Of a stretch of DNA of 64,000 bases, positions 29,825 through 51,535 are shown piece by piece (the stretch's first letter is position 1; each line of letters starts with the position of its first letter). The notes under the pieces are model-generated. The model ran no database searches and was not told the origin of the DNA. It was given only the letters and a program-made list of their open reading frames with translations. Where the stretch lies: the NCBI RefSeq assembly GCF_049446115.1, contig NZ_JBMSEC010000004.1, forward strand, positions 66,954-130,953, in the 5' to 3' direction. The stretch is from Caulobacter sp. KR2-114 (GTDB lineage: Bacteria > Pseudomonadota > Alphaproteobacteria > Caulobacterales > Caulobacteraceae). Position numbers and translations under genes: made by a program.

Positions 29825-29975
29825 CGGGGGCTCCAATCTGGGGCCCCCTTCCCCGGCTTCGCCGGTACTTCCCCCAGAGGGGGAAGAGAATTGGCGCTCG
29901 AGCCCCGCACATCCGTTCTCTTCCCCCCTTGGGGGAAGTCCGGCCGAAGGCCGGGATGGGGGCTCCAGCGGAGCG
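29825..29975. repeat. Composite palindromic intergenic repeat, copy 1 (head-to-head arrangement)
   Basis: ggggcccccttccccggcttcgccggtacttcccccagagggggaagaga…tctcttcccccttgggggaagtccggccgaaggccgggatgggggctccagcggag. Nested hairpins ccggcTTCGccgg and cttcccccAGAgggggaag. Confidence 0.8.
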
Positions 29976-30764
29976 CTAACCCAACCCCGCCAGGAACCGT
30001 TCGATCGCCGGGTTGACCACCTGCGGGTGGGTGAGGTTGGCGGCGTGGCCGGCGCCGGGGACCACCACCAGCTGGGCGTCGGGCAGGCCCGCCGTCAGGG
30101 TCTTCGCCAAGTCCAGCGAGATGGCGGCGTCGGCGTCGCCGTGCACCACCAGGGCCGGGACCTTGATCTCGCCCAGCCGCGGGGTGATGTCGTCGCGGCT
30201 GGCCAGGGTCTGCATGCAGCCCAGCACGTTGACCGGCTTGATGGTCTTCCACTTCGCCTTCCAGGCCGGGGCGCCCGCCCAGCCCTCGCCCAGAATGATG
30301 TGCTCGATGATGCCGGCCATCTCGTCCGAAAGGCCCTGCGTCGCCCAGGTGTTGGCGAGCTGCATATGCCCCTCCAGGGCGTTGGGGTCCTCCTGGCCGG
30401 CCTGGGTGTCGATCAGCACCAGGGCGCGGACGATCTGCGGATGCGTCAGCGCGCAGCGCAGCGACAGGAAGCCGCCCTGGCTCATGCCCGCCAGCACCGC
30501 CCGCTCGATGCCAAGGTGCTTCAGCAGCGCCGCCAGGTCGTCGGCGGAGTCGTAGTAGCTGAACGGCGCCAGGGTGTCCGAGGCTGTGCCGGCATGGCCG
30601 CGCTCGTCCCAGGTGATGCAGCGCCAGCGCCCCTTCAGCGCCTCGACCTGCGGCGCGAACATCGCGTGGTCCATGAACAGGCCGTGCGAGAAGATGATCG
30701 CCGGACCCGTCCCGCCGGTGTCCTCGTAGTAGATGTTCTGGCCGTTGACCGCGGCGATGGGCAT
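29976..30764 (-). CDS. Alpha/beta hydrolase
   Basis: Nucleophile elbow GMSQGG and an alpha/beta-hydrolase fold (HG…D…H). Flanked on both sides by copies 1 and 2 of the repeat. Confidence 0.85.
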   Translation of the reverse strand: MPIAAVNGQNIYYEDTGGTGPAIIFSHGLFMDHAMFAPQVEALKGRWRCITWDERGHAGTASDTLAPFSYYDSADDLAALLKHLGIERAVLAGMSQGGFLSLRCALTHPQIVRALVLIDTQAGQEDPNALEGHMQLANTWATQGLSDEMAGIIEHIILGEGWAGAPAWKAKWKTIKPVNVLGCMQTLASRDDITPRLGEIKVPALVVHGDADAAISLDLAKTLTAGLPDAQLVVVPGAGHAANLTHPQVVNPAIERFLAGLG

Positions 30765-30835
30765 GGAACGCCTCCCCTGTTCTGATTGGCGCGCAGTTGT
30801 GCACGGGGATGGCGCAAGGAAAAGGGGCCCCAGCC

Positions 30836-30975
30836 AAGCTGGAGCCCCCTTCCCCGGCTTCGCCGGGACTTCCCCCAGAGGGGGAAGAGAAGCCGCCTCT
30901 GAGCCGACTGCCGTTCTCTTCCCCCATTGGGGGAAGTACGGCCGAAGGCCGGGATGGGGGCTCCAGCGGAGAACC
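30836..30975. repeat. Composite palindromic intergenic repeat, copy 2 (head-to-head arrangement)
   Basis: Near-identical to copy 1 (ggagcccccttccccggcttcgccgggacttcccccagagggggaagaga…tctcttcccccattgggggaagtacggccgaaggccgggatgggggctccagcggag). Confidence 0.8.
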
Positions 30976-30992
30976 GCCGGAGCCCTTGCCCG

Positions 30993-33008
30993 CTAGGCGT
31001 CTTCCTTCTCGGGTTCGGCCGCGGGCGGTTCGGAGAGGCCAAGCGGCAGGTCGAGCTTCTCGGCCATCAGCAGGGTCATCAGCGCCTGCAGCACGCCGCC
31101 GGACGCCCCCCCGCCATTGGCGCCGCCGGCGATCTGAACCTTGGGCACCACGTCGACGCCGCTGGTCTCCAGGGCCTCGGCGAAGCGCTCGGCGACCTGG
31201 CGGGCCAGCTGGAAGCGGGGACCGCCGGACGCGGCGACCTGGCTTTCGATGGCCTCGGCCTGGGCCAGGCCCACCTTGGTCACGCGCTCGGCCTCGGCGG
31301 CGGCCAGGGCCACGACCTTCTTGGCCTCGCCCTCGCCCAGGAAGCGGATGCGGTCGGCCTCGGCCTTGGCCAGGGTGCGGGTCTGCTCGGCCTCCTGTTC
31401 CGAGCGGGCGAGGTTCGCCCGGCCGGCGTTCTGCTGCACCTGGATCGACAGCTGCGACTCGGTGATCGCGGTCTGTTGCTTGGCGAAGGCCTCCGCCTCG
31501 CGCAGCTCGCGTTCCTTCTGCGCGGCCAGCTTCTGGCGCTCATAGGTGCCCACCTGCTCGTCGGCGATCTGCCGCTGGCGTAGCTGGGTCAGGATGCGCT
31601 CGATCTGGTCGTCGCCGGCCGCGTTGGGCCGCGGGGTGCCGATCAGCACCTCCTGGAGCTCCAGGTTGTAGACCCCGAACTTGGTCTTCATCTCCTGCGA
31701 CGACAGCGACTGGATCTCGCTGCGGTCCTGCAGCAGCTCGATCAGGGTGCGCGTCTGGCCGATGTTCTTGAAATAGGCGCTGACCATGGGATCGAGCGTC
31801 TGCTCCACCAGCTTCTTGATGTCGCCGAAGCGCTGGATCACCAGCGGCGCCTTGCGGTAGTCGATGTGCACCACCACCGAGACCGGCAGGGTCGGCTCGA
31901 AGGCGTCCTTGGTGATCAGCGACACCTCGGCCAGGTTCTCGTCGAACTTGTGCGAGCCGATGGCGTTGCTCTCCCACTTCAGGATGAAGTTGGTGGTCGG
32001 CACCATGGTCACGCGGCCGGCGTAGGTGTTGAAGGCGTACTTGCCGGGCAGCAGCGGGTCGCACCAGACGCCGCGACGGCCGTTCTCCACCAGCTCCCCG
32101 TGGCGGTAGCTCTCGCCCGAGGTGTCGACGCCGGCGTCGCCGGTATAGGACACCACCACCCCGACCTGGCCGACCTCGACCACGGTCTTGGGGATCCGCT
32201 CGACGGTCGCGAACAGGCGGTTGATATAATAGGTGCCCTCGACCAGCACCTGCAGCTGGCGGCCCTTCTGACCACCCGCCGCCAGGAACTTGCTGGGGTC
32301 CTGGAAGCTGTTGTGGAAGGTCGCCGTGTCGGCCGGATCGACGCCCACGGTCGGGGCGATGATGTCGCCCGACGCCAGGCCGGGGCCGTCGTGCACGGTG
32401 ACCACGCCGATCTGGTCGTCGGCGTCCTTGATCACCACCGGCTCGAAGCCGTCGCGCGCGGCGATCACCTCGGCCATCTGGTCCAGCAGCGCCGAGTCGG
32501 CGCCGTCCAGGCGCAGGGCGAAGGTCTGGTCGCGGGTGACCACCACGAACTGGGCCAGGTTGATGGCGTACGAGCCCTCGCGCAGGATCTTGCGCTGCGG
32601 GCCCTTCTGGCCGCCGCTCTCCAGGAACCGGCGGGTGTCCTGGAAGTCCACGTCGTCAGGGTTGGCGGCCAGCGTCTGGTCCGCGTTCAGCGGCAGGCCG
32701 CCGCGCGCGAACACATAGCCGATCCGCCCCTGCGGGATGGTCACCAGGGGCTGCACATGCAGCCGGAACTGGAACGGAAAGAAGAAGTGCAGGCCGCCGC
32801 GCAGCACGTCGGGCTGAAAGCCGGCCTCGTCCTTCAGGGCGATGATGCCGGATCGGATCGAACCGGCGGGGCTCCACAGCTTCTCGACCACCGCCACACG
32901 GCTGTTGCCGATGTAGCGGACCATGCCGGAACTGGCGAACAGCACCAGCAGCAGAACGACAAGCACGATCGCGCCCAGCCAGGGCGCGATACTTATGACT
33001 TCGGGCAT
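30993..33008 (-). CDS. Flotillin-like SPFH/band-7 protein (YqiK family)
   Basis: N-terminal TM, SPFH domain, long coiled-coil Ala/Glu/Gln-rich region (…QKLAAQKERELREAEAFAKQQTA…). Confidence 0.85.
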   Translation of the reverse strand: MPEVISIAPWLGAIVLVVLLLVLFASSGMVRYIGNSRVAVVEKLWSPAGSIRSGIIALKDEAGFQPDVLRGGLHFFFPFQFRLHVQPLVTIPQGRIGYVFARGGLPLNADQTLAANPDDVDFQDTRRFLESGGQKGPQRKILREGSYAINLAQFVVVTRDQTFALRLDGADSALLDQMAEVIAARDGFEPVVIKDADDQIGVVTVHDGPGLASGDIIAPTVGVDPADTATFHNSFQDPSKFLAAGGQKGRQLQVLVEGTYYINRLFATVERIPKTVVEVGQVGVVVSYTGDAGVDTSGESYRHGELVENGRRGVWCDPLLPGKYAFNTYAGRVTMVPTTNFILKWESNAIGSHKFDENLAEVSLITKDAFEPTLPVSVVVHIDYRKAPLVIQRFGDIKKLVEQTLDPMVSAYFKNIGQTRTLIELLQDRSEIQSLSSQEMKTKFGVYNLELQEVLIGTPRPNAAGDDQIERILTQLRQRQIADEQVGTYERQKLAAQKERELREAEAFAKQQTAITESQLSIQVQQNAGRANLARSEQEAEQTRTLAKAEADRIRFLGEGEAKKVVALAAAEAERVTKVGLAQAEAIESQVAASGGPRFQLARQVAERFAEALETSGVDVVPKVQIAGGANGGGASGGVLQALMTLLMAEKLDLPLGLSEPPAAEPEKEDA

Positions 33009-33149
33009 TGGACCCTCCAGGTGCGCTGGGGGTCGCCCTCGCGGCCCCGCTCAGGAAGCGCAACCAGAGCTATAGATAAGCTTGGCCCTAGACCAGCGTT
33101 AGCCCCGCAAGGCCCGGCGCACGGAAAAATCGAACATCGGTCGCCGAAC

Positions 33150-33878
33150 CTAGGGCCCGATGAAGGTCGCCTGGTCCAGGCCAGCGGCGCCGCCGGCCTG
33201 CCGGCGTCCGAACACCCAGGCGCCGTCCACGTTCAGCGCCAGCACCGGGAAGTAGCGATCGGTGTGACCGGGGGCGAGCGGCGCGTCGTGGCGCGAATCC
33301 AGCACGTAGGCGTCAGGCCCGTCGCGCACCACCAGCAGGGCGTCGTCGGCTTCGCGCGCCCAGTCGCGCACCAGCACCACGAACAGGTCACGCCGCGGCG
33401 TGCCGCACGCGGCCAGCAGCTGCAGCTTGGCGATGGCGATGTCGGTGTGCTCGCCGCTGCCGCGCGCCAGGCTCCTGGCCAGGGTTCCCCAGTGCTTGGA
33501 CAGGGTCGGGTCGGGGGCATAGGGGATGTGGGCGTTGACCCAGGCGTTGGCGCCGGCGACCCGCTCGCGCAGCGGCAGGCTGGCGAGCCTGGCGACCGCC
33601 CGATCGAAGTCGGCGTCGCCCGTCGGCAGGGCGCTGTTGGAGGCTTCGCGCCAGACACTGTCGTAGATCGTCTGCCCCAGCCGCACGCCGGTCAGGCCGA
33701 ACAGGTCCGGCGGCGCGTTCGTCGGCGCCGGCGCCGCCAGCAGGCTGTCGAGCAGCCGGTCCAGCAGGGCCTCGTCAGGCCCGTCGGTGGCGCAGGCCTG
33801 GGACGCGCCGACCAGCACGGCCAGTCCCGCAGCGGCGCCCAAGGCCGCACGGGCCAGGCGATATCCAGCAAAGCGCAA
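33150..33878 (-). CDS. Secreted BTLCP-like (bacterial transglutaminase-like cysteine peptidase family) protein with apparently substituted catalytic residues
   Basis: Signal peptide. The …GSGEHTDIAIAKLQLLAACG…LFVVLVRD…DDALLVVRDGPDAYVLDSR block aligns to the BTLCP G-D-C-E-D-Y-A…G-H-A-V-L…L-D-N-R core as recalled from memory, with Cys→His and His→Asp. Confidence 0.45.
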   Translation of the reverse strand: MRFAGYRLARAALGAAAGLAVLVGASQACATDGPDEALLDRLLDSLLAAPAPTNAPPDLFGLTGVRLGQTIYDSVWREASNSALPTGDADFDRAVARLASLPLRERVAGANAWVNAHIPYAPDPTLSKHWGTLARSLARGSGEHTDIAIAKLQLLAACGTPRRDLFVVLVRDWAREADDALLVVRDGPDAYVLDSRHDAPLAPGHTDRYFPVLALNVDGAWVFGRRQAGGAAGLDQATFIGP

Positions 33879-33994
33879 TGAAGCCCCCCGGACTGATTCC
33901 CATCAGTTCGGACCCAGAGGGCTGAAAATTCATGAACTTGCGGCGGCCAAACGAAGTCGGAAATGAGTCCGGGCCCGCGGCAGGCTGTCGCGCC

Positions 33995-34756
33995 TCAGCC
34001 CTTGAAGCCGTCCTTGGCCGCCCGCACCGCGCCGAACGCCTCGAAGTCCGGCGCGCCGGCCTTGCCCACCCGCCCGGCCAGGGCGGGCGCGCGCAGGAAC
34101 GGGTTGGTGGCCTTCTCCAGGGCGATGGTGGTGGGCACGGTGGGCTCGCCGCGCTCGCGGGCGGCGAACACCGCGTCGGCCCGCGCCTTCAGCGCCGGGC
34201 CGTCGTCCACCGACAGGGCGAAGCGGGCGTTCGAGGCCGTGTACTCGTGGGCGCAGTAGACGCGGGTGTCGTCCGGCAGGGCGGCCAGCTTCTGCAGGCT
34301 GGTCCACATCTGTTCGGCCGTGCCTTCGAACAGCCGCCCGCAGCCCAGGGCGAACAGGGTGTCGCCGACGAAGGCGACGTGGTCCGCCGCGTCGAAATAG
34401 GAGATGTGGCCCAGGGTGTGCCCGCCGGTCTCCAGCACCGCGAACCGGGTCTCGCCCAGCTCGACGACGTCGCCCTGGCCCACCTGGCGGTCCAGCGGAG
34501 CGATGCGGGTGACCTCGCCCGGGCCGACGATGGTGGCGCCGGTGGCCGCCTTGATCTCCGCGTTTCCGCCCGCATGGTCGGCATGCCAGTGGGTGTTGAG
34601 GATCAGGTCCAGGCCCCAGCCCAGCGTCTTCAGCTCCGCCAGGATCGCGGCGGCGTCGGGGGTGTCCACGGTGGCGGTCTTGCCGGTCGCCTCGTCGCGG
34701 ATCAGGAAGCCGTAGTTGTCCGACAGGCAGGGGAACTGGTGGACGGTGAGAGGCAT
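33995..34756 (-). CDS. gloB: Hydroxyacylglutathione hydrolase (glyoxalase II)
   Basis: Metallo-beta-lactamase motif THWHADHAGG. GloB-type length (253 aa). The longer ORF in the track is a frame artefact. Confidence 0.9.
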   Translation of the reverse strand: MPLTVHQFPCLSDNYGFLIRDEATGKTATVDTPDAAAILAELKTLGWGLDLILNTHWHADHAGGNAEIKAATGATIVGPGEVTRIAPLDRQVGQGDVVELGETRFAVLETGGHTLGHISYFDAADHVAFVGDTLFALGCGRLFEGTAEQMWTSLQKLAALPDDTRVYCAHEYTASNARFALSVDDGPALKARADAVFAARERGEPTVPTTIALEKATNPFLRAPALAGRVGKAGAPDFEAFGAVRAAKDGFKG

Positions 34757-34837
34757 GCAAAACGCTCCGGCAGGGCGGGGAGAGGACAAAAGGACCGCGG
34801 CGACCTTACATTGAAGCCGAATCGAAACGGAGCCCCG

Positions 34838-35680
34838 ATGCGCCAGGGCGTGCTTCAGTTGCGAGAATTCTACGCCTCCCCGCTCGGCCGCGCCGCCCGG
34901 ACCATGGTCGCGCGCAAGGTCAACGAGGCCTGGGAGACCGCCAACGGCCTGGACGTGCTGGCCCTGGGCTACGCCACGCCGTTCCTCGACAGCGTCAGCC
35001 GCGGCGCGCGGCGGGCGGTCGCCGCGATGCCGGCGGGCCAGGGCGTGGAAGCCTGGCCGATGGGCGAGCGCAACCTCGCCTGCCTGGTGGACGAGACCAC
35101 CCTGCCCTTCCAGCCGTCGCTGTTCGACCGCGTGCTGGCGGTGCATGCCCTGGAAGAGGCCGACAATCCCCTGGCCCTGCTGCGGGACGTCAACCGCGTG
35201 CTGGCCCCGTCGGGCCGGGCGATCCTGGTGGTCACCGCCCGCCACGGCCTGTGGGCCGACGCCGAGGCCACCCCCTTCGGCCAGGGCCGTCCCTACAGCC
35301 GCCGCCAGCTGGAGACCCTGGTTCGCGAAGCGGACCTCGAGCCCACCGGCTGGACGCGGGCGCTCTACGCCCCGCCCTTCGGCTGGGCCGCGCGCTGGGC
35401 GGAGGGCTTCGAACAGGCCGGCGCCCTGCTGTGGCCGCCGTTCGCCGGGCTGATCCTGCTGGAAGCCGTCAAGCAGACTTTCGCGGTGCGGCCGAAGGGG
35501 GCGAAGGTCCGCGCCCGCGCGCCGGCGCCCGGGGTGCTGCAGCCGGCCACCCGCGGCCGCGCCCTCTCCGGCATCGCCACTTCGGGCGCCATTTCTTCAG
35601 GCGCCGGAACGAACGGCTACGGTGAGGCGCTTGGAGGCGGGTCGGTTTTGGTCCAACTTCACGGTCGCCGGGCCGAGTAG
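34838..35680 (+). CDS. Methyltransferase-domain protein (class I SAM MTase-like), divergent from gloB
   Basis: …LDVLALGYATPFL…RVLAVHALEEADNPLALLRDVNRVLAPSGRAILVV… is a Methyltransf_11-like core. The C-terminal ~60 aa is Gly/Ala-rich, so the stop is uncertain. Confidence 0.6.
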   Translation: MRQGVLQLREFYASPLGRAARTMVARKVNEAWETANGLDVLALGYATPFLDSVSRGARRAVAAMPAGQGVEAWPMGERNLACLVDETTLPFQPSLFDRVLAVHALEEADNPLALLRDVNRVLAPSGRAILVVTARHGLWADAEATPFGQGRPYSRRQLETLVREADLEPTGWTRALYAPPFGWAARWAEGFEQAGALLWPPFAGLILLEAVKQTFAVRPKGAKVRARAPAPGVLQPATRGRALSGIATSGAISSGAGTNGYGEALGGGSVLVQLHGRRAE

Positions 35681-35691
35681 AGGTTTCCCCA

Positions 35692-36035
35692 TGAAAATGA
35701 TCACCGCCGTCATCAAGCCCAGCCGCCTCGACGCGGTCCTGGAAGCCGTCACCGAGGCGGGCGCCTCCGGGCTGACGGTGACCGAGGTGCGCGGCTATGG
35801 CCGCCAGAAGGGCAAGACGGAGGTCTACCGCGGCGCCGAGTACGAGGTGAAGCTGCTGCCCAAGGTGAAGCTGGAGATCGCCGTGCCGTCCGACATCGTC
35901 ACCGCCGTGGTGGAGGCGATCAGCGCCTCGGCCAACACCGGCAAGATCGGCGACGGCAAGATCTTCGTCATGGACCTGGAAAACGCCATCCGCATACGCA
36001 CCGGCGAACTGGACGCCGCCGCGATCAGCGGGTGA
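35692..36035 (+). CDS. glnB: Nitrogen regulatory protein P-II
   Basis: MKMITAVIKPSRLDAVLEAVTEAGASGLTVTEVRGYGRQKG…, T-loop RGYGRQKG. About 112 aa. Confidence 0.85.
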
Positions 36036-36087
36036 GGTCTTTGGGGCGACCGAGGCGGCGTAGCAGGTGTCGTCCGGGCAACAGCGC

Positions 36088-36232
36088 CGCTTCTCTTCCC
36101 CCACTGGGGGAAGTACCCGCGAAGCGGGGGTAGGGGGTTCCAGCGGAGAGCGGACGCTCGCCCAGGGGCTGGCGCACGGGAGCCCCCATCCCGGCCTTCG
36201 GCCGTACTTCCCCCAGTGGGGGAAGAGGATCG
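36088..36232. repeat. Composite palindromic intergenic repeat, copy 3 (tail-to-tail arrangement)
   Basis: tctcttcccccactgggggaagtacccgcgaagcgggggtagggggttccagcggag…gggagcccccatcccggccttcggccgtacttcccccagtgggggaagag. The two half-units are swapped relative to copies 1, 2 and 4. Confidence 0.8.
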
Positions 36233-36256
36233 GGGCGCAGGGCCGCCTCCGCAGAT

Positions 36257-36928
36257 CTACCCGAACAAGTCCGCCTTCGCCGGCGCCGCGGCCGCTGGGG
36301 CCGCGCCGTCACGGCGGCTGAGCAGGAACAGGCCGGCTTCCGAGCGCCAGTTCTCGATCGGCCGCGAGGGATCGATCGGCCGCGCCGGACGGCCGGCCGA
36401 CAGCCGCGCCGCCGCGTCGATGCGCAGGCCGAGGTCGTCGCACAGGGCGGTGAAGTCGCGCAGGGTGCACAGGTGGATATTCGGCGTCGACCACCAGGGC
36501 TCGGGCAGCGAGCCGGTCATCGGCATGCGGCCGTGCAGCAGCAGGTCCAGCCGCACGCGCCAGTGGCCGAAGTTCGGCAGCGAGACGATCGCCTGGCCGC
36601 CGATGCGCAGCAGTTCGCCCAGCACATGCCGCGGGTTCAGCACCGCCTGCAGGGTCTGCGACAGGATCACATAGTCGAAGGCCTGGGCCGGGAACGAGTC
36701 CAGGTCGCGGTCGGCATCGCCCTGCACCACCGCCAGGCCGCGGGCGAGGCAGGCCGAGACGTTCTGGGGGCTGATCTCCAGGCCGCGGCCGTCGACGTCC
36801 TTCTCGCGCGCCAGCAGTTCCAGCAGGTCGCCATCCTCGCAGCCGATGTCCAGCACGCGCGCGCCGGGGCGCACCAGGCGCAGGATCTCCTGGAAGTCCT
36901 CGCGGACCGGTCCCGTGTTCACGCCCAA
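36257..36928 (-). CDS. metW: Methionine biosynthesis protein MetW
   Basis: VLDIGCEDGDLLELL and the metW-typical C-terminus. Lies immediately downstream of metX. Confidence 0.9.
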   Translation of the reverse strand: MGVNTGPVREDFQEILRLVRPGARVLDIGCEDGDLLELLAREKDVDGRGLEISPQNVSACLARGLAVVQGDADRDLDSFPAQAFDYVILSQTLQAVLNPRHVLGELLRIGGQAIVSLPNFGHWRVRLDLLLHGRMPMTGSLPEPWWSTPNIHLCTLRDFTALCDDLGLRIDAAARLSAGRPARPIDPSRPIENWRSEAGLFLLSRRDGAAPAAAAPAKADLFG

Positions 36929-36962
36929 GCCCTCACCTCAGGAACCCTCACGTCAGGGGCCC

Positions 36963-38132: not shown

Positions 38133-38232
38133 GCGCCTTGGAGGGGTCAAAGCTTCCCCGCTGTCAACCACCAGCAGCGGTTTCGGCCGGCGAGGCGAGC
38201 GGCTAAGACGTCAGTCGGGGAGTGCCTTGCCG

Positions 38233-38742: not shown

Positions 38743-38772
38743 GCCCAGACAGCCCGACGAACAGACGCCCGC

Positions 38773-40876: not shown

Positions 40877-40946
40877 CACGGCTTCCGGATTCGCCGCGAC
40901 GGTGCGTTTCATTGCTACGGCGCGGCTTCTCAAGTAACGGGATTCC

Positions 40947-42458
40947 ATGGCGGACGACGCGTCCCTGCCCGAGCCCCGATCGTCAGGCGAGCGCCGGTTC
41001 CCGAGGCTCGGCGGCCTCTCCTCGCGCCTGCTGCTGGTCACCGTGCTGATCGTGGTGGTGGCCAACCTGCTGATCCTGCCGCCGAACCTCGCCGCCTTCC
41101 AGGAACAGTGGCTGCTCGACCGGCTGCGCGCCGCCGAGCTGGCCTCGCGCGTGGCCGACGCCGCCCCCAACGGCCAGGTCACCGAACACCTGTCGCAGCA
41201 GCTGCTGGAACAGGCCGAGGTGGTCTCGGTGGCGATTCAGGCCGACGGCAACCGGCGCCTGGTGCTGCAGGCCCCGCGGCTGACCCGCACGCCCTATCTG
41301 ATCGACCTGCGCCAGGACAATCCGATCACCTCCCTGGCCGGGCCGATCCAGACCCTGATGGGCGGCGGCCAGCGGATGGTGCGGGTGATCGCCCGGCCGC
41401 GCTACATCCCCGGCGAGTTCGTCGAGATCGTCGCCCCCGACGCCCCGCTGCGCAAGGAGCTGCTGGCCCAGCTCGGCCGGCTGATGGCGATCGCCGCCTT
41501 CACCTCGCTGATGGCCGGGGCGGTGGTGTTCTTCTCGCTGAACTTCCTGCTGGTGGCGCCGATGCAGCGCATCACCCGCTCGATGCAGAAGTTCCGCGCC
41601 AATCCGGAGGACCCCGAGGCGGCGATCCATCCCTCGGGCCGGCGCGACGAGATCGGCGTGGCCGAGGCCGAGCTCGACCGGATGCAGTCGGACCTGCGCG
41701 CCGCCCTCGCCTCGCGCGCCCGGCTGGCGGCGCTGGGCGCGGCGGTGGCCAAGATCAACCACGACCTGCGCAACATGCTGACCAGCGCGCAGATCGCGTC
41801 CGAACGGCTGGCCCTGTCGGGCGACCCCAAGGTGGCCCAGGCCCTGCCGCGGCTGGAGCGCGCCCTCGACCGCGCCATCGTGCTGGCCTCCAACGTGCTG
41901 GCCTTCGGCAAGAGCGAGGAGCCGGCCCCCGACAAGCGGCCCACGCCGCTGCGCCCGGCGCTCGAGACGGCGGCCGAGGACGCGCGCCTGTCGCACGAGG
42001 GCGTGCGGCTGGTGGTGGACTCGCCGCCGGGCGCCCGGGTGGACGCCGACCCCGAACAGCTGCACCGCATCCTGGTCAACCTGATGCGCAACGCCCGCGA
42101 GGCGATCGACGGGGTCGAGGGACGCGGCGGCGTCGGCCAGATCCGCGCCACCCTGACCCAGGCCGACGGCTTCAGCCTGATCCGCCTGGCCGACAACGGT
42201 CCGGGCCTGCCGGACCGGGCGCAGACCAACCTGTTCCAGCCGTTCGCCGGGTCCACCCGCCGCGGCGGCGCCGGCCTGGGCCTGGCCATCGCCAAGGAGC
42301 TGAGCCAGGGACACGGCGGCGACCTGACCCTGGTGGAGACCGGCGAGAGTGGGACCACCTTTGAGATCCGCCTGCCGGGCGCACCGGAGCCCCTGCCGCG
42401 ACGGCGCAAGGCGCCGACCGGTGGAGACGGGGCGTCGGACGGCGCCGGAGAGGACTGA
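40947..42458 (+). CDS. Two-component sensor histidine kinase
   Basis: N-terminal TM, periplasmic segment, second TM. HisKA H-box (INHDLRNML) and HATPase_c N/G1/G2 boxes (LMRNAREA…DNGPGLP…GGAGLGLAI). Confidence 0.85.
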   Translation: MADDASLPEPRSSGERRFPRLGGLSSRLLLVTVLIVVVANLLILPPNLAAFQEQWLLDRLRAAELASRVADAAPNGQVTEHLSQQLLEQAEVVSVAIQADGNRRLVLQAPRLTRTPYLIDLRQDNPITSLAGPIQTLMGGGQRMVRVIARPRYIPGEFVEIVAPDAPLRKELLAQLGRLMAIAAFTSLMAGAVVFFSLNFLLVAPMQRITRSMQKFRANPEDPEAAIHPSGRRDEIGVAEAELDRMQSDLRAALASRARLAALGAAVAKINHDLRNMLTSAQIASERLALSGDPKVAQALPRLERALDRAIVLASNVLAFGKSEEPAPDKRPTPLRPALETAAEDARLSHEGVRLVVDSPPGARVDADPEQLHRILVNLMRNAREAIDGVEGRGGVGQIRATLTQADGFSLIRLADNGPGLPDRAQTNLFQPFAGSTRRGGAGLGLAIAKELSQGHGGDLTLVETGESGTTFEIRLPGAPEPLPRRRKAPTGGDGASDGAGED

Positions 42459-42464
42459 GTCCGG

Positions 42465-42610
42465 CTGGAGCCCCCATCCCCGCCTTCGGCGGGACTTCCC
42501 CCAAGGGGGGGGGGGAAGAGAACGGTGTAAGAGGCTCGAGCGCCAATTCTCTTCCCCCTCTGGGGGAAGTCCCCGCGAAGCGGGGGATGGGGGCTCCAGC
42601 GGAGCGCCTA
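42465..42610. repeat. Composite palindromic intergenic repeat, copy 4 (head-to-head arrangement)
   Basis: ggagcccccatccccgccttcggcgggacttcccccaaggggggggggaagaga…tctcttccccctctgggggaagtccccgcgaagcgggggatgggggctccagcggag. Confidence 0.8.
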
Positions 42611-43396
42611 CCGCCCCCAGACCGCCTTCTGGATGCGGCGCGACGACGGACGGCCGGCGATGCCTTCCTTGGGCGTGACGGTGATGGTCAGGACACCGCC
42701 CTGCATCGCCGCCTGGGTCCTGGGGCCGACGATGAAGGCGATCTTGCCGACGCGCGCCAGGGAGGAGCGGCTGTCCGGCTGGGACGCCAGGTTTGAGAAG
42801 GCTTCCACGGTGATCACGGCGGCGTCGGCGATCAGGGCGTCGGAATAGGCGTCAGCGTCCGGGGCCTCGAACTCGACCAGGTGCTGGGCCGAGCGGGTGG
42901 CGCGGACGCTGGCCTGGAACAGCCGCTGATACAGCACCACGGGCCCCAGGGTCGGCATGCGCAGCGGCGAGGTCGGGCCGACCAGCAGGGCGGCCGACCC
43001 GGCCGGCCGCTTGGTGGTGAACACCGTCATCCCGCCCAGCCGCGTGGCCCGCAGCATGGTCTCGCCCAGGTCGTTCTTGTAGATGATGTCGCCCCGCGGC
43101 CCGCGCGCCTGGCTCAGCACCCAGATTTCAGGGCTGTCATCAAACTTGAGCAGAGGGTGCGGCGCGCTGCGGTCCAGCACGAACACCCCGCCCTCGTCGA
43201 TGTTGTAGCGCGCCACCTGCGGCGAGGCGCCGGCGCGGCCCTCGTCCATGTGCTCCAGGCCCAGCGCGTTGCGCAGCACGTCGTGCCCGGCGCTGGCCGG
43301 CGAGCCGAATCCAAGAGCCATCGCCGCAGCGAGCGCCACGGCGATGGCAATCCTGCCATTCAGGGCCCAACGTTTCGGCGCCATTACAAGGTGCAT
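42608..43396 (-). CDS. Secreted hypothetical protein (DUF4908-like)
   Basis: Signal peptide …AIAVALAAAMALGFGSPASA, then a ~220-aa domain. Family assignment is from memory only. Alternative start ATG at 43384. Confidence 0.45.
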   Translation of the reverse strand: MHLVMAPKRWALNGRIAIAVALAAAMALGFGSPASAGHDVLRNALGLEHMDEGRAGASPQVARYNIDEGGVFVLDRSAPHPLLKFDDSPEIWVLSQARGPRGDIIYKNDLGETMLRATRLGGMTVFTTKRPAGSAALLVGPTSPLRMPTLGPVVLYQRLFQASVRATRSAQHLVEFEAPDADAYSDALIADAAVITVEAFSNLASQPDSRSSLARVGKIAFIVGPRTQAAMQGGVLTITVTPKEGIAGRPSSRRIQKAVWGR

Positions 43397-43434
43397 GCCC
43401 CGGGATCAGGGCGCTTTTTGGACGGGTCCGAAGG

Positions 43435-44160
<726 letters not shown>

Positions 44161-44242
44161 AGCCTTGCGTTCTCCCTGGCCCGCCTAGGCTGCGGGCCTC
44201 TCGTTGAAATCAACTGCCCGAGACGACCCTGTCGGGCGACGC

Positions 44243-45463
<1,221 letters not shown>

Positions 45464-45617
45464 TCACGCGGCGTTCGTCACGCATAGGATTGATGACGTT
45501 ACCCGATCGCAGGATCGACCCGGTGCGCGGCGCCCATCCAGCACTGGCGCTGCCGATTTGCATCCGCGATACTGCAGTGCGAAAAACCCCTCACGTAACG
45601 GGGGGCCGGGAAACACG

Positions 45618-46259
45618 ATGGCGAACGAGTCTGAAGCGGGCGCGCCGGGGGGCGCCGACCGCGTGGTGATCCAGAAGTACGCGAACCGGCGGCTCTACAA
45701 CAAGGCCACCAGCACCTACATCACGCTGGAAGACCTCTCGACCATGGTCAAGGACGGCGTCGACTTCGTGGTCTACGACGCCAAGACGGGCGAGGACATC
45801 ACCCGCAAGGTGCTGACCCAGATCATCTTCGAGGAAGAGAGCCGCGGGCAGAACCTGCTGCCGATCCAGTTCCTGCGCCAGCTGATCCGCTTCTACGGCG
45901 ACCAGATGCAGGCCTTCCTGCCCAGCTACCTGGAACTGTCGCTCGACAGCTTCATCCGCCAGCAGGAGCGGCTGCGCAGCCAGTTCAGCGCCATCAGCCC
46001 GCCCGGCATCACCGGCATCGCCGGCTACGAGGAACAGATCCGCCAGAACCTGCAGCTGTTCGACCGGGCGATGAAGATGTTCTCCCCCTTCGCCTTCCGC
46101 CCGGAAGACGCCGCGGGCGCCGCCCCAACCCCCGCCAAGGCCGCCGAACCGACCGCCGAGCCCCCCAAGGGCGACGCCGACTCCCTCGCCGAACTGCGCC
46201 GGCAGATGGAGGCGATGCAGCAGCAGCTGGCGGCGCTGGCCTCGAAGAAGGGTTCCTGA
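45618..46259 (+). CDS. phaR: Polyhydroxyalkanoate synthesis repressor PhaR
   Basis: IQKYANRRLYNKATSTYITLEDL… is the hallmark PhaR N-terminal DNA-binding motif. Transcribed divergently from phbA. Confidence 0.9.
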   Translation: MANESEAGAPGGADRVVIQKYANRRLYNKATSTYITLEDLSTMVKDGVDFVVYDAKTGEDITRKVLTQIIFEEESRGQNLLPIQFLRQLIRFYGDQMQAFLPSYLELSLDSFIRQQERLRSQFSAISPPGITGIAGYEEQIRQNLQLFDRAMKMFSPFAFRPEDAAGAAPTPAKAAEPTAEPPKGDADSLAELRRQMEAMQQQLAALASKKGS

Positions 46260-46335
46260 CCGTCGCGGGCGGCGCCCGCGTCAACCCGTTGTTCGGACTT
46301 CCGCCCTAGCTGATCAACCATGACGGGAGATCCGC

Positions 46336-48093
46336 ATGGCTGAAGCGATGCTGACACGGCCGCCGCGCAAACTGCCGGCCTCGCTGTTCGTGGCCATCCT
46401 GCTGGGGCTGGTGATCGCCGGGCAGTGGTTCGTCTGGACCGGTCTGCTCCTCATGATGCTGGGCGCCCCCGCCTGGTCGATCGTGCTGGTCAACCTGCTG
46501 CTGATCACCATCGGCATCGACGCCTGGCGCCGCGCGCTGCCGCGCTGGACGCTGCTGGTCCCGATCCTGGCCTACGGCGGCAACCTGGCGGCCAGCGGCG
46601 CGGGTTTTGTCCAGTACCTGGGCGTGAAGGCCGAGATCGACGGACGCAACGCCGCCACGCCGATGGCCTTCGATCCGGCGCGCGAGGCGCTGGTGACGGA
46701 CTATCAGACGCTGAAGCCTCTGGTGTCTGGCTACCAGCTCCCGGCAGCCTTCATCGACGCGAACGCGAGGCCCTATCCGCTGCCGGGCCACTACCGGCGG
46801 TTCACGCGCCGCGGCGCCGCGGAACCGCTCGTCATGCCGCCCTCGCCGGCCCCGTCCTATCGGTCCGCGCGTCTGTGGCTGAAGGCCGACTGTGACGCCG
46901 TCGAGGTCACCGACGCGATCCAGGTCCGCACCGCCCCCGTCGACGTCGACCGCGTCCCGCTGGCCAACGCGTGCCTGCTGGAGATGCCGGAAACGCCGGC
47001 GGCGCCGCTGGTCACCAGCCAGAGGACCCAGGCGAAGGGTGGCGGCGGGCTGCTGGAAACCGCCATCTGGACCCTGGGCGTCACCGGCCCCGGCGGCGCC
47101 GGCGCGACGCGGGTCTACGGCACGGCCGCCATCCTGATGCCCATCCCCCTGCCGGTGATCGGCTGTGGCCTGAATGACGCCGACAGCCGCTGGGACTGCA
47201 CGGCCCAGCTGCTGCGCTTCCCCATGCCGCTGGGCGTTTCGGGCAAGTCCGGCGACGACGCCGGCGCCGCGGCGCTGGCCTCGGCGCTGAACCTGCAACC
47301 GCGGACCATCCGCATCGTGCGTCCGTCGCGCGGCCTGTTCGACCGCGGCGCGGCCGAGGTCGACGCGGCCGAGACCGTCCGGATCTCCGGCGACCGCGCG
47401 CCGGTGCTGGCGCTGATCGACGGCCTGCAGGCCCAGCGCCGGGCCGACGCCAGCGCGCGGCTGGACGAGGTGCTCGCCGGCCGCAGTCCCCGCGTCGAGA
47501 CCGGCTTCGGCGCGGTCATGGCGCCGCACGCCGACCAGCTCGCCGCCCGGGCCGACGCCATGATGGGGCTGCTGGAAGACGCCGTCGCCCACCGCGACGA
47601 CGGCATGGTCTGGGAGATCGGCCAGGTGGTCGCCGCCCTGCCGCCGGCGGCCTTCGACCGCATCAGCGGCCGGCTGATCGCCCTGGCGCCCCGCGCCGGC
47701 TGGTTCGCCCGCGCCCCGACCCTGCTGACCCGGCTGGGCGACGCGGCGCCCGCCAGCGGGCCGGTGCTGCGCCAGGCGCTGAACGCGCCGGACCGGATGG
47801 CGACCGCCGGGGCGGTGCTCGGCTATTGCCGGGCCGGCGGCAGGCTGCCGGACGGGCCGCAGGCGATCGCCGAGACCACCCAGCGCCTGCGCCGCAGCAT
47901 CGACGTCGGCGAGGCGGCCTATGTCGCCTTCCTGCGGCTGGGCCGGCCGGATCTGGCCGTCGTCCCACCGCGCCGCCAGACCGACTGGTTCGACGCGATC
48001 AAACGCACGGTAACGCCTGCCTCGCCCCGCTCGGTCTGCCGCATCGACGGCCGCCGCCCCTGGAACCTGCCGACCGCCGCCTGGCTGGACTGA
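46336..48093 (+). CDS. Hypothetical membrane protein (3 N-terminal TM segments + ~480-aa domain of unknown function)
   Basis: A long ORF with good local codon usage. No recognisable catalytic motifs. Confidence 0.55.
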   Translation: MAEAMLTRPPRKLPASLFVAILLGLVIAGQWFVWTGLLLMMLGAPAWSIVLVNLLLITIGIDAWRRALPRWTLLVPILAYGGNLAASGAGFVQYLGVKAEIDGRNAATPMAFDPAREALVTDYQTLKPLVSGYQLPAAFIDANARPYPLPGHYRRFTRRGAAEPLVMPPSPAPSYRSARLWLKADCDAVEVTDAIQVRTAPVDVDRVPLANACLLEMPETPAAPLVTSQRTQAKGGGGLLETAIWTLGVTGPGGAGATRVYGTAAILMPIPLPVIGCGLNDADSRWDCTAQLLRFPMPLGVSGKSGDDAGAAALASALNLQPRTIRIVRPSRGLFDRGAAEVDAAETVRISGDRAPVLALIDGLQAQRRADASARLDEVLAGRSPRVETGFGAVMAPHADQLAARADAMMGLLEDAVAHRDDGMVWEIGQVVAALPPAAFDRISGRLIALAPRAGWFARAPTLLTRLGDAAPASGPVLRQALNAPDRMATAGAVLGYCRAGGRLPDGPQAIAETTQRLRRSIDVGEAAYVAFLRLGRPDLAVVPPRRQTDWFDAIKRTVTPASPRSVCRIDGRRPWNLPTAAWLD

Positions 48094-48156
48094 CGGGGGG
48101 CAGATGACCCTCTCCCCATCTGCGATGGGGCGGGGGCTATTGGGACGGGGGCTGTC

Positions 48157-48618
48157 TCAGGCCGCCGCCCTGACCTGCAACCGCGCGCCGCCCAGCACCG
48201 CGGCGACCTCGACCTTGGCGCCGTCCGCCAACGCGCCGCCGCCTTCAAGTTCCGCCGCCCATTCCTTGCCGTCGACGAACACCCGGCCCTCGCCGGCGGT
48301 GAAGGCGCCGCAGGCTTCGCCGCGGTGGCCGACCAGGCGGCCGGTCTGGTCGTTGATATCGGGCAGGGGCGAGGGGCCGCGGGGCATGAAGCGGCGGCCG
48401 AGATAGGTGGTCACCACCGTACACACGGCGAACAGGGCCGCCTGGCCGGGGGGATGCAGGGGGGCGAACAGGCAGGTCACCGCCACGATCGCCGCCGAGC
48501 CGGCCGGCCACAGCAGCCAGCCCGAGCCGGTGCTGAGCTCGATGACCAGGAACACCGCGCCGATGCCGAGCCAGACCCAGAACGGATGCGCGAAATAGAA
48601 GGTGCTGATGGCGTCCAT
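48157..48618 (-). CDS. NfeD-family membrane protein (OB-fold, SPFH partner)
   Basis: Two to three TM segments, then a C-terminal OB-fold …GRLVGHRGEACGAFTAGEGRVFVDGKEWAAE…. RBS GGAG precedes the ATG. Sits immediately downstream of the SPFH gene. Confidence 0.8.
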   Translation of the reverse strand: MDAISTFYFAHPFWVWLGIGAVFLVIELSTGSGWLLWPAGSAAIVAVTCLFAPLHPPGQAALFAVCTVVTTYLGRRFMPRGPSPLPDINDQTGRLVGHRGEACGAFTAGEGRVFVDGKEWAAELEGGGALADGAKVEVAAVLGGARLQVRAAA

Positions 48619-48622
48619 GGCG

Positions 48623-49612
48623 TCAGCTCCCCGAGGTCGGCGTGAAGGGCGAGGCCGGCGGCGGGCGGCGCGGCGGGGCCGGGGGCGCGGGCGGGCCGCC
48701 GGCCTGGGCGGCGCGCACCAGTTCGGTGATGCCCGAGATCGAGCCGGCGATGCCGGCCAGTTCCGCCGGCACGATCACCGTGCGCTGCTGCGGCGACTCC
48801 GCCAGCTTGGCGAAGGCCTCGACGTACTTCTGGGCGACGAAATAGTTCAGCGCGTTGACCGAGCCGGACTCGATGGCGTCCGAGACCACCTTGGTGGCCT
48901 GGGCCTCGGCCTGGGCGGCGCGTTCGCGCGCCTCGGAATCGCGGAAGGCCGCCTCGCGCCGGCCCTCGGCCTGCAGGATCGCCGACTGCTTGGCGCCCTC
49001 GGCGCGGGTGATGGCGGCCTGTTTCTCGCCCTCGGCCTCGGTGATCACCGCGCGACGCTCGCGCTCGGCCTTCATCTGCCGGGTCATGGCGTTGGAGATG
49101 TCGGCCGGCGGCTGCAGGTCCTTGATCTCGATGCGGGCCAGCTTGACGCCCCAGGGGCTGGTGGCCTCGTCGATCACGGTCAGCAGCCGGGTGTTGATGT
49201 GGTCGCGCTGGGAGAGCACCTCGTCCAGCTCCATGGAGCCGACCACGGTGCGCAGGTTGGTCATCACCAGCTGGGTGATGGCGGTGACCAGGTTGGCCAC
49301 GCGGTAGGCGGCCGCGGCGGCGTCCATCACCTGGATGAAGACGATGGCGTCGACCTGGACCATGACGTTGTCCTTGGTGATCACCTCCTGGCGCGGCACG
49401 TCCAGCACCTGTTCCATCATGTTGATGCGCTTGCCGACGGCCTCGACGAACGGAGTCAGGATGGCGATGCCCGGCTTCAGGGTGCGCGTGTAGCGCCCGA
49501 AGCTCTGCACCGTGTACTCCCACCCCTGCGGCACCACCTTGATCACCGACAGCGCCAGCCACAGGGCCAGCATCACCAGCAGTATCAGGACGAAAAGACC
49601 CAGCAGCGCCAC
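48623..49612 (-). CDS. SPFH/band-7 (stomatin-like) protein
   Basis: N-terminal TM, SPFH core (…[30 protein letters not shown]…) and a coiled-coil Ala/Glu-rich tail. GTG start. Confidence 0.85.
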
Positions 49613-49757
49613 GATCCATGCCTCCCCAGCGTTGTCGTCGCCGCGAGACTAGCGCGCGGCGCAGGCCCCGGCTATGGCCGCTGCGGCTTCAGGCTTGACC
49701 GTTGCGCCGGAGGGCGGCGCATAGCACCCTGGAGCGGTGCGCATGGGGGAGTCTCGC

Positions 49758-50324
49758 ATGAGTGGTTTTGGCGTCCGGGGCCCGGTGGCGGCTTTCGTGG
49801 CGGCTCTTGTGGCGGTCCTGGCGGCGGCGGTCGCCGCGCCCGCGGCGGCGGCGGACTTCGACGCCCGCAAGCCGAAGGATGTGCTGGACGTGGTCACCAG
49901 CAACGGCGCCAGCGGCAGCCTGAAGGTCGGCAAGGACGGCAAGCCCTATGTCGAGGCCAAGGCCGGCAAGATCTTCTTCGACGTCGACTTCTACGACTGC
50001 GACGACGCCAAGGCCTCGTGCACGACCCAGAACTTCAACGCCTACTGGACCACCAAGGACGTCACCAACGACCAGATGAACCGCTGGAACCGCTGGACCA
50101 TGTGGTGCCCGGGCTATCTCGACAAGGACGGCCAGCCGAACATGTGGATGAGCGTGCCGGTGTTCGCGCACGAGGCCCGCGACGACCAGCTGGACGTGGT
50201 CAACACCTGGCTCGACTGCCTGCGCGACTTCGACGACTTCGTCGCCAGCCCGGAAGAGGTGCTCAAGCACAAGGAAGAACCGGCGGCCAAGCCGGCGGTC
50301 ACCCCCGGCTCGACCGCCTCCTGA
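49758..50324 (+). CDS. Secreted hypothetical protein with four conserved Cys
   Basis: Signal peptide …AAVAAPAAAADF. Cys at FYDCDD, SCTTQ, WCPGY and LDCLRD. No confident family assignment. Start could also be 49737 or 49743. Confidence 0.45.
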   Translation: MSGFGVRGPVAAFVAALVAVLAAAVAAPAAAADFDARKPKDVLDVVTSNGASGSLKVGKDGKPYVEAKAGKIFFDVDFYDCDDAKASCTTQNFNAYWTTKDVTNDQMNRWNRWTMWCPGYLDKDGQPNMWMSVPVFAHEARDDQLDVVNTWLDCLRDFDDFVASPEEVLKHKEEPAAKPAVTPGSTAS

Positions 50325-50333
50325 TCCGCCCCC

Positions 50334-51323
50334 TCAGGCGGTCACCGGGGCGCGGCCGGCGGCCTGCAGCCTGGCCAGGCGGCTGATCGCGGCGTCGGCC
50401 TCGGCCAGCATGTTGGCGACGATCGTCGCCACCGGCAGCACCTCGCGCACCCCGCCGGCCGACTGGCCCATGGCGAAGCAGGACTTGTCGGGGTCCAGGC
50501 CCTCGATCTGGCCGCCGATGCCGCCCATCGCGCCGGCGCGCGAGGAGATGCCGGCCTGGATCGGGAACGGCTGGATGTCGCCCGCCCGGCTCTCCCAGTC
50601 CTCGACCCAGGCGTTCTTGCGCACGCGCATCGGCTTGCCGGAATAGGAGCGGGTGCGGACGGTGTCCTCGTCGGTGGCCTCGATGATGGTCTGCCGATAG
50701 AGGCCGCCGGCGTGCGCCTCCTGCGAGGCGATGAACCGGGTGCCCATCCAGACGCCCTGGGCGCCCAGCGCCAGGGACGCGGCCAGGCCACGCCCGTCGT
50801 AGAGGCCGCCGGCGGCGACCACCGGGATCTTCACCCGCTCCACCGCCTGCGCCACCAGCGGCATGGTGCCGACCAGGCCGGTATGGCCGCCGCCCTCGCC
50901 GCCCTGGCAGATCACCGCGTCGCAGCCGGCCTGCTCGGCCTTCACCGCGTGCTTCACCGCCCCGCAGACCACCATCACCTTCAGGCCGGCCTTCTTCAGC
51001 CGTTCCATGATCGGCATCGGCACGCCCAGGCCGGCGATGAAGGCCGAGGCGCCTTCCTCGATGATGATCTCCACCGAGGCGGTCAGGCTTTCGGGCGAGG
51101 CGGCCAGCAGGTCGACGCCGAACGGCTTGTCTGTGAGCGTTTTGACCTTGCGCATCTCGTCGCGGATGAAGGCCGGGTCGCGGCCGGCCATGCCCAGCAC
51201 GCCATAGCCGCCGGCGTTCGACATCGCCGCCGCCAGCTCGGCGTAGGAGACCCCGCCCATGCCGGCCAGCATGATCGGATGCTCGACGCCGAGCAGGTCG
51301 CAAAGGGGCGTGTGCAGGCTCAT
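50334..51323 (-). CDS. NAD(P)H-dependent flavin oxidoreductase / nitronate monooxygenase (NMO) family
   Basis: …HPIMLAGMGGVS…, …AVICQGGEGGGHTG… TIM-barrel FMN motifs. RBS GGGAGAG. The upstream 72 codons in the track read through repeat copy 5 and are an artefact. Confidence 0.85.
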   Translation of the reverse strand: MSLHTPLCDLLGVEHPIMLAGMGGVSYAELAAAMSNAGGYGVLGMAGRDPAFIRDEMRKVKTLTDKPFGVDLLAASPESLTASVEIIIEEGASAFIAGLGVPMPIMERLKKAGLKVMVVCGAVKHAVKAEQAGCDAVICQGGEGGGHTGLVGTMPLVAQAVERVKIPVVAAGGLYDGRGLAASLALGAQGVWMGTRFIASQEAHAGGLYRQTIIEATDEDTVRTRSYSGKPMRVRKNAWVEDWESRAGDIQPFPIQAGISSRAGAMGGIGGQIEGLDPDKSCFAMGQSAGGVREVLPVATIVANMLAEADAAISRLARLQAAGRAPVTA

Positions 51324-51404
51324 GGCGGTCTCTCCCGAGATGTTTCGCGGCAAACTCCCGCCGCGCGCGGTGCGATGCAAGTATGACCTAGGGTCAAAGC
51401 ACGC

Positions 51405-51535
51405 TTCTCCTCCCCCCTTGGGGGAGGGGGACCCCGAAGGGGTGGAGGGGGCTCCAGCCTGGCGCGAACGGCGGTTCTCCGCTGGAGCCCCCATCCCCGG
51501 CTTTGCCGGGACTTCCCCCAAAGGGGGAAGAGACT
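51405..51535. repeat. Composite palindromic intergenic repeat, copy 5 (tail-to-tail arrangement, more diverged)
   Basis: ttctcctccccccttgggggagggggaccccgaaggggtggagggggctccagcc…ggagcccccatccccggctttgccgggacttcccccaaagggggaagaga. Confidence 0.75.

Follow-up and report, generated by a model that had tools for sequence, protein, structure and literature searches.

Five compound palindromic elements in a 64,000-nucleotide (nt) stretch of Caulobacter sp. KR2-114 DNA (contig NZ_JBMSEC010000004.1, positions 66,954 to 130,953; hereafter the window) probably belong to a dispersed, non-coding family of Caulobacterales that resembles repetitive extragenic palindromes (REPs), bacterial interspersed mosaic elements (BIMEs) and the REP doublets known as REPINs. 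Each element, designated c1 to c5, is a dimer of inverted units. The units are copies of each other, spread over numerous unrelated loci in many genomes, and they lodge almost exclusively just after stop codons, in convergent or co-directional spacers. Occupancy of a given site varies among close relatives, and settled copies are inherited vertically. Pairing in the two hairpins of the unit, referred to here as hp1 and hp2, is preserved by compensatory change, and the loop and an unpaired box are constant in sequence.

Units were detected by repeat finding, alignment and a scan of the window with a covariance model (R1) whose filters were turned off. Exactly ten full units of ~66 nt each were recovered, making up five inverted dimers, with scores of 56–87 bits and E-values ≤3.5e-13. 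These dimers are the five copies reported in a preliminary description of the sequence, and they are real by all three approaches. The G+C content of the window is 71%, and the pattern GGAGCCCCC-N18-20-CTTCCCCC-N3-4-GGGGGAAG matched it six times, against 0.00 matches expected from shuffles. From head to tail, a unit consists of a head flank, the box, the sequence WTCC, hp1, GA, hp2 and an AGAGA tail. The head flank takes one of two forms, ..GCGCCARG or ..TCTCCG. The conserved, unpaired 12-nt box is GCTGGAGCCCCC, which the full unit reading gives as CTGGAGCCCCC followed by WTCC. The hp1 hairpin has a variable, covarying stem of 5–6 G/C base pairs, a C-G closing pair and a 3-nt TTC loop (GAA on the complementary strand), and hp2 has the form CTTCCCCC-NNN-GGGGGAAG. 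The box, the variable-but-paired hairpin and the second hairpin of the preliminary description were all found. A third conserved hairpin, CTCC-GCT-GGAG, was rejected, with 47% of its cells paired; it is one of the two head-flank variants. Two unit types are known, T1 and T2, the latter with the consensus GGAGCCCCC-TCC-ACCSC-TTC-GSGGT-CC-CCCTCCCCC-NNN-GGGGGAGG. Dimers are ~130–150 bp long, joined head-to-head or tail-to-tail, and homo- or heterodimeric.

The loops of hp1 had initially been taken for UUCG/GAAG tetraloops, which is wrong. The C(UUCG)G register does not pair; the axis of symmetry of hp1 runs through the central T of TTC, so the hairpin is a 5–6 bp stem with a 3-nt loop and not a tetraloop. 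Over all variants, the loops belong to the TNC/GNA triloop class, with GGA and GCA also occurring on the GNA strand. The C-GNA-G triloop motif is one of exceptional single-strand stability, and mini-hairpins of the d(GCGAAGC) type were reportedly described by Hirao and co-workers in the 1990s. On one strand, hp1 reads ...C-GAA-G... as these mini-hairpins do (e.g., CCCGCGAAGCGGG), whereas in the present units the motif forms part of a longer stem within a repeated element, and the likeness noted is in sequence.

Nine of the ten units in the window are of type T1. In c1, c2 and c4 the units are joined tail-to-tail with their boxes outside, whereas c3 and c5 are head-to-head with their boxes inside, so the two opposed arrangements first noted among the copies hold. 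The left unit of c1 (29827..29892, + strand; R1 score 82.9 bits, E 3.3e-20) carries the box variant GGGGCCCCC, an hp1 of CCGGC/GCCGG around a TTC loop, and hp2 as CTTCCCCC-AGA-GGGGGAAG. Its partner (29914..29979, − strand; 84.9 bits) has the hp1 stem CGGCC and a head flank that overlaps the stop codon of a hydrolase gene at 29976–29978. The same two stems recur in c2: CCGGC in the left unit (30828..30893, +; 85.2 bits), whose box also pairs with the flank at 30824–30834, and CGGCC in the right unit (30912..30977, −; 84.2 bits), 17 nt from the stop codon of a Band_7 gene (30993). In c3, the left unit (36089..36154, −; 78.9 bits) has the box GGAACCCCC and hp1 CCCGC, and lies head-to-head with the right unit (36166..36231, +; 75.4 bits), which has hp1 CGGCC and sits between the convergent genes glnB and metW. 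Both head flanks of c4 overlap stop codons, that of the left unit (42454..42524, +; hp1 CCGCC; 73.8 bits) the histidine-kinase stop codon at 42456–42458, and that of the right unit (42545..42610, −; hp1 CCCGC; 86.7 bits) the DUF4908 stop codon at 42608–42610. The left unit of c5 (51403..51468, −; 56 bits) belongs to the second type, T2, a correction to the earlier account, and reads GGAGCCCCC-TCC-ACCCC-TTC-GGGGT-CC-CCCTCCCCC-AAG-GGGGGAGG. The right unit of c5 (51471..51536, +; 82.2 bits) has hp1 CCGGC with a TTT loop and ends ~4 nt from the stop codon of an SDR gene (51540).

Some copies show further peculiarities. For instance, the 3′ arm of hp2 in the c4 left unit (42505–42515) consists of 11 G instead of the usual 5, a homopolymer expansion within the hairpin. 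The outer ends of c1 and c2 (29825–29850 and 30815–30850) hold an extra inverted box, which yields a box′-loop-box hairpin like that of a truncated third unit placed head-to-head. In c1 this extra box lies at 29825–29834, with GGAGCCCCC on the minus strand at 29826–29834.

Covariation in hp1 was measured in 50 gap-free T1 units (alignment A6), using 500 shuffles and slid-partner controls. The pairs 28-38, 29-37 and 30-36 swap between G-C and C-G in 11, 15 and 19 of the 50 units, with 6, 0 and 0 unpaired cells, respectively, at these three inner pairs, and 88% of hp1 cells are paired overall. The observed score for pairing and covariation was reached by none of the 500 shuffles, and sliding the partner columns collapsed both. 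The loop-closing C-G pair and the TTC loop are nearly invariant in the same units. Among 101 distinct units of all types, 85 form a perfectly paired hairpin at the hp1 position, with a stem of 4 bp or more; the 27 distinct stem strings represent about a dozen core stems, and the loop is TTC in 70 units. As for hp2, which the search pattern fixed for many units, covariation is seen between unit types, the second pair being U-A in 61 units and C-G in 16. Both hairpins bear out the suggestion made from the window that the stem differences are compensatory.

Whole dimers have folding energies of −56 to −60 kcal/mol as DNA (z −7.3 to −8.3) and −101 to −106 kcal/mol as RNA (z ~−7), and they can fold either as two pairs of local hairpins or as one long imperfect hairpin or cruciform. 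The fold energy of a single unit as RNA is no better than that of its G/C-rich shuffles (z −0.25 to −0.65), so the case for the small hairpins rests on covariation and not on energy. A Y-shaped, three-way fold of the monomer was rejected, as its closing helix occurs only in the c2 left unit.

A collection of species-representative genomes was scanned with the unit pattern, leaving hp1 free, and at least 54 loci were found. Most of them belong to Caulobacteraceae or Caulobacterales metagenome-assembled genomes (MAGs), several of which carry many loci each (e.g., JANYFU01, CAWFQJ01 and JAFEEA01). The counts of units, dimers and spacers that follow come from a profile search among the matches listed for these loci. 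About 100 units were identified, arranged as 25 tail-to-tail dimers, 14 head-to-head dimers and ~20 monomers. T1/T1, T1/T2 and T2/T2 pairings were all seen, 19 dimers being T1/T2 heterodimers, and T2 units occur in at least 16 further loci. The spacing of head-to-head units is 21–37 nt, mostly 26–29 nt, a tightness that follows from the direct abutment of two units, each bringing its own head flank. Tail-to-tail spacings cluster at 13–17, 22–26 and 30–33 nt. Copies at unrelated loci are 80–98% identical in sequence. The family is therefore dispersed and multi-copy, as had been supposed of a REP- or transposon-like repeat, and its units are found at many loci in other Caulobacterales genomes besides the window. 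By comparison, 80 loci of more distant Caulobacterales and other alphaproteobacterial relatives, gathered by way of MetW, contained almost no units, which argues that the family is lineage-restricted and not universal. A blastn search of a plasmid collection with c2 gave no match, although the low-complexity filter may hide matches, and a pattern scan of viral contigs also gave none, so nothing there points to a phage vector.

T1-like units with the same box, hp2 and hp1 geometry also occur outside the Alphaproteobacteria, where the hp1 stem is GTCGC or GGCCC and the loop TCC or TTC. They are found at loci L002, L017, L036, L039, L045 and L053, with MAGs of Dehalococcoidia and Chloroflexi among the carriers, and at L019, which is from Luteimonas flava. 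In one Dehalococcoidia chromosome (OZ241375.1; L039, 4398–4916), three copies and further small hairpin modules share a tandem array of 225 bp. The units of Dehalococcoidia, Chloroflexi and L. flava hint at a widely shared recognition module. A different kind of variation is seen at L044 (2377–2485), L050 (4597–4671) and L016 (3943–4026), where a longer G/C-rich hairpin takes the place of hp1 or of the hp1–hp2 junction and the box and hp2 are retained.

Comparison of orthologous sites reveals loci that are filled in one relative and empty in another, in keeping with the mobile character ascribed to the elements at the outset. Five relatives share the order of genes around c4, phaR-thiolase-SDR-DUF4908 / histidine kinase-VTT-pyrD. 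Where the element is present, the convergent stop codons are separated by 149 bp (window) or 144 bp (L145; DUF4908 identity 90%); where it is absent, the spacer is 23 bp in L147 and L148 (90%), 5 bp in L149 (86%) and 22 bp in L151 (81%). The MAG to which L151 belongs carries the family elsewhere in its genome. The c4 insert is sharply bounded by CTGGAG...CTCCAG, and the L147 site, which is empty, already has the flank GCGCTCCG. The c3 site, a convergent glnB-metW spacer conserved in many relatives, is a 62-bp spacer without the element in L065 (89% MetW identity), and in L066 (also 89%) it is occupied by a different compound palindrome. Finally, L055 (92% hydrolase identity) has both c1 and c2 in the corresponding places, so copies are retained through vertical descent.

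When the window is compared with L055 or L145 at the filled sites, exact compensatory exchanges of G-C and C-G in hp1 set apart three of the six orthologous half-units (CCGGC to CCCGC in the left units of c1 and c2, and CCGCC to CGGCC in that of c4), each leading to a stem variant common in the family. Such swaps may stem from selection for pairing, or else from conversion by other members of the family or replacement with them. In c4, the inner spacer is closer to that of c1 in the same genome than to that of its own orthologue, and this likeness, together with the hp1 swaps, suggests conversion between copies.

The alpha/beta hydrolase gene in the 29822–30992 region is bracketed by c1 and c2, both in the same orientation. 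Loci L061–L063 (82–84% hydrolase identity) are without c1 and c2 and have a PIN/PhdYeFM toxin-antitoxin pair between the hydrolase and AMP-binding ligase genes. Loci L057 and L060–L064 were rejected as clean empty hydrolase sites on account of their rearranged neighbourhoods.

Sharp insert boundaries are what would be expected of a classical MITE (miniature inverted-repeat transposable element), i.e., a deletion derivative of a DDE-type insertion sequence whose tail-to-tail dimer represents two terminal inverted repeats moved by the transposase of the parent element, with a short target duplication. The tail-to-tail dimers do have terminal inverted repeats of ~60 bp with heads outward, an 18-nt inner spacer is common to c1 and c4, and a 3-bp CCG repeat possibly flanks c4. 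This last feature is not secure, and it has no counterpart at c1 or in L145. Moreover, head-to-head dimers, monomers and T1/T2 heterodimers are about as common among the matches listed as tail-to-tail homodimers, which points to modular REP/BIME units and not to one transposon bounded by terminal inverted repeats. No pair of units in the loci encloses a transposase gene, and the loci contain no insertion sequence with ends of this type; the only heads-out pair that spans 1.9 kb, at L037, encloses a thioesterase gene and two open reading frames (ORFs) without a Pfam family. A MITE origin, conceivable for the tail-to-tail dimers, leaves the head-to-head dimers, monomers and heterodimers unexplained and is unlikely for the family.

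The REP-like reading also accords with where the copies are found. The neighbours of c1 and c2 are genes for the AMP-binding ligase, the alpha/beta hydrolase (29976–30764, −) and Band_7; c3 lies between those for P-II (glnB) and MetW, c4 between those for the histidine kinase and DUF4908, and c5 between the SDR and NMO genes. All of these neighbours are core genes of an ordinary kind. The hydrolase is 100% identical to the NCBI protein of Caulobacter sp. KR2-114; an exact-protein look-up of it gave no record. Three of the window dimers are in convergent spacers and two in co-directional spacers, and c1 and c4 fill the whole spacer, overlapping stop codons. It had been proposed that all copies sit directly 3′ of genes. 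This holds insofar as every copy lies 0–54 nt from at least one stop codon and the flanking genes are those named, but c2 and c5 each lie ahead of a further gene in the same direction as well, and for c5 the start codon of that gene (NMO, 51323) is 80 nt downstream. Across the wider set of loci, where spacer classes rest on crude gene calls based on G+C at third codon positions (GC3), occupied spacers among the matches listed number 20 convergent, 19 tandem and 1 divergent, against a background of 52, 149 and 53 in the same loci (hand-calculated chi-square ~24, 2 degrees of freedom), an excess in convergent spacers and a near lack in divergent ones, and most copies are <20 nt from a stop codon.

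A position right after stop codons, in convergent and tandem spacers, could also be read as that of a cis-acting RNA element, such as a terminator, a 3′-UTR stabiliser or a small RNA, kept at each site by selection and not a selfish or mobile repeat. The very stable hairpins, the conserved GNA/UNC triloop and the covarying stems would suit such an element, and at one place there is some resemblance to a terminator. This is the outer end of c2, where a hairpin of box and flank is followed by the U-rich stretch UUUUCCUU on the minus strand, which is that of the upstream Band_7 gene, and where the terminator part of the Rfam family BjrC68 gives a sub-threshold match (24 bits vs. a gathering score of 39). 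The U residues of UUUUCCUU can pair with the preceding GAAG. With this sole exception, the terminator role suggested earlier found no support: a terminator scan of 29600–31200, covering c1 and c2, returned 0 terminator-like sites, and no T-run follows the dimers of c3–c5 as read by eye. Monomers in co-directional spacers point either way (2 vs. 4), without bias with respect to transcription in this small sample. The Rfam match that had been sought was also absent, a gathering-threshold scan of the whole window giving 0 matches and an E-value scan below the threshold giving, besides BjrC68, only generic long-hairpin models (miRNA precursors). Close relatives have spacers of 5–23 bp with no element at the same gene pair, and the 80–98% identity among copies at unrelated loci requires copying and not convergence. 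Selection for an RNA function at each site is, on this evidence, quite improbable as the explanation of the family.

Among known systems, the enterobacterial REP/BIME repeats, in which Y, Z1 and Z2 units form mosaic arrays, offer several parallels. Both are extragenic, comprise at least two unit types in alternating orientation with head-head and tail-tail junctions, lie after the stop codons of convergent or co-directional genes while being kept out of promoter regions, and form stable transcript hairpins. In contrast to the single imperfect palindrome of ~35 nt found there, the Caulobacterales unit is ~66 nt long, combines two tandem triloop hairpins with an unpaired 12-nt box, and has no GTAG tag. 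REPINs of Pseudomonas and Enterobacteria, which are mobilised by REP-associated tyrosine transposases (RAYTs), are likewise inverted doublets that form a long hairpin, occur as multi-copy subfamilies, persist vertically for long periods at orthologous sites and have a conserved dimer spacer in some copies (Bertels & Rainey 2011, PMC3116915). Unlike them, the present family commonly shows both head-to-head and tail-to-tail arrangements as well as heterodimers, and no RAYT was found among 38 window proteins. The REP super-families described by Di Nocera et al. (2013, PMC3733652) form head-to-head and tail-to-tail homo- and heterodimers with spacers of 20–100 bp and a preference for unidirectional and convergent regions, an organisation shared by the elements described here; those with a CGTC tag are mainly alphaproteobacterial. 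Literature searches by sequence strings returned nothing relevant.

Several points weigh against the REP-like reading. For one, GTAG and CGTC REPs are defined by an unpaired tetranucleotide at one end of a single stem-loop of 8–9 bp or longer (PMC3733652). The present consensus, GCTGGAGCCCCC-WTCC-hp1-GA-hp2-AGAGA, has neither tag, and each unit has two hairpins instead of one, so it is not a member of those super-families. Its stems are 5–6 and 8 bp long and pure G/C at the loop end, and its loops are 3 nt, as opposed to stems of 8–9 bp with A-T in the first positions and loops of 4–5 nt. A second point concerns the enzyme. No transposase was seen among the 38 window proteins scanned or beside the L037 copies examined, and the cognate RAYT that had been suggested was not found either in those proteins or, by a regular-expression search for HUH and Tyr motifs, in 811 kb of loci, the latter being a crude, weak and insensitive test. 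RAYTs are reported to be rare in Alphaproteobacteria (PMC5581495), and the alphaproteobacterial CGTC REPs have no known dedicated transposase (PMC3733652), so the mobilisation step rests on analogy. Third, the hp1 variants form subfamilies, and the covariation counts are partly the amplification of a few founders. It follows that independent compensatory events are few, far fewer than the cells counted, and stems might likewise be held to the variants already present by gene conversion between copies.

REPs are recognised by HUH Y1 transposases (RAYTs) as a folded strand plus a tag. By analogy, an enzyme acting in trans, now or in the recent past, would copy the Caulobacterales element by recognising its folded single strand, i.e., the hairpins, with the box as a sequence tag. 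On the REP-like reading, the hairpins would be constrained because they are recognised in this folded, single-stranded form, and new copies would survive only where promoters and genes stay undisrupted. Where a copy is transcribed at the 3′ end of an upstream mRNA, the transcript probably gains a 3′ barrier or attenuator in its very stable hairpin, a role that REP/BIME repeats play in E. coli. Such an effect on RNA 3′ ends is a possible, secondary one, and would be a by-product or exaptation instead of the family's reason to exist. A more far-reaching proposal, and a doubtful one, is that the box, the GNA-triloop hairpin and the CTTCCCCC/GGGGGAAG hairpin form the recognition unit of a non-RAYT mobilisation system. 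Such a system would use single-stranded DNA in its folded form, insert into the few base pairs that separate convergent stop codons, and owe its presence in Alphaproteobacteria, Gammaproteobacteria (Luteimonas) and Chloroflexi to horizontal transfer or to ancient descent. If true, this would also explain alphaproteobacterial REP-like repeats without a known transposase. The family is new in detail and ordinary in kind; taken alone, it does not uncover a novel type of system.

From the host genus itself, the CcrM-associated intergenic repeats (CIRs) of Caulobacter (Chen & Shapiro 2003, by the description in PMC2229807) invite comparison. They too are long intergenic elements of ~110–150 bp with inverted-repeat organisation. 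Their defining feature, a conserved CcrM site (GANTC), is missing from the T1 and T2 consensus sequences, so by this criterion the units are not CIRs; the only such site noted, a GAGTC in c4, is located in the flank. Membership of the CIR family is highly improbable.

The elements have practical consequences for annotation. The pseudo-peptides previously remarked on in the ORF track are present (LPPLGEVRPKAGMGAPAER); they belong to no Pfam or NCBIfam family and have no match among 5.8 billion proteins. The elements are traversed by long spurious ORFs or N-terminal extensions at 50334–51539 (−; through c5), 28879–29979 (+), 42349–42678 (+) and 36025–36312 (−), and real stop codons are overlapped. 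The true start codon of NMO is most likely that at 51323, after a GGGAGAG ribosome-binding site. A model of the family would allow cleaner gene calls in the high-GC genomes of Caulobacterales, and its orthologous sites, cleanly either filled or empty, can serve to mark strains. The family further provides a natural, clear case of hairpin covariation in a DNA repeat. It joins the poorly understood alphaproteobacterial REP-like repeats that lack a known mobilising enzyme, and a genome-wide census could point to that enzyme.

Other palindromes are also present in the window. A different palindromic dimer lies at 1888–2064, between a DUF4440/SnoaL gene (903–1850) and a beta-lactamase-family gene (2076–3455). 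It is made up of CCTTCTCCC-CTTG-CGGGAGAAGG, then CCGCC-GCA-GGCGG, then the box ATGAGGGGT, so that the module order hp2-hp1-box is that of T1 and the triloop is of the C-GNA-G kind; its match to R1 is weak (E 0.1–0.4). A third compound palindrome, at ~10640–10790 in a convergent spacer (10608–10798), contains GATTC, a CcrM site of the GANTC type, close to its middle. It looks like the same family as the palindrome in the glnB-metW spacer of L066, and its kinship with the published CIRs may be closer than that of T1 and T2. Lastly, an unrelated hairpin, GCAGATG...CATCTGC, occupies a convergent spacer at 48094–48156, between genes at 46336–48093 (+) and 48157–48618 (−).

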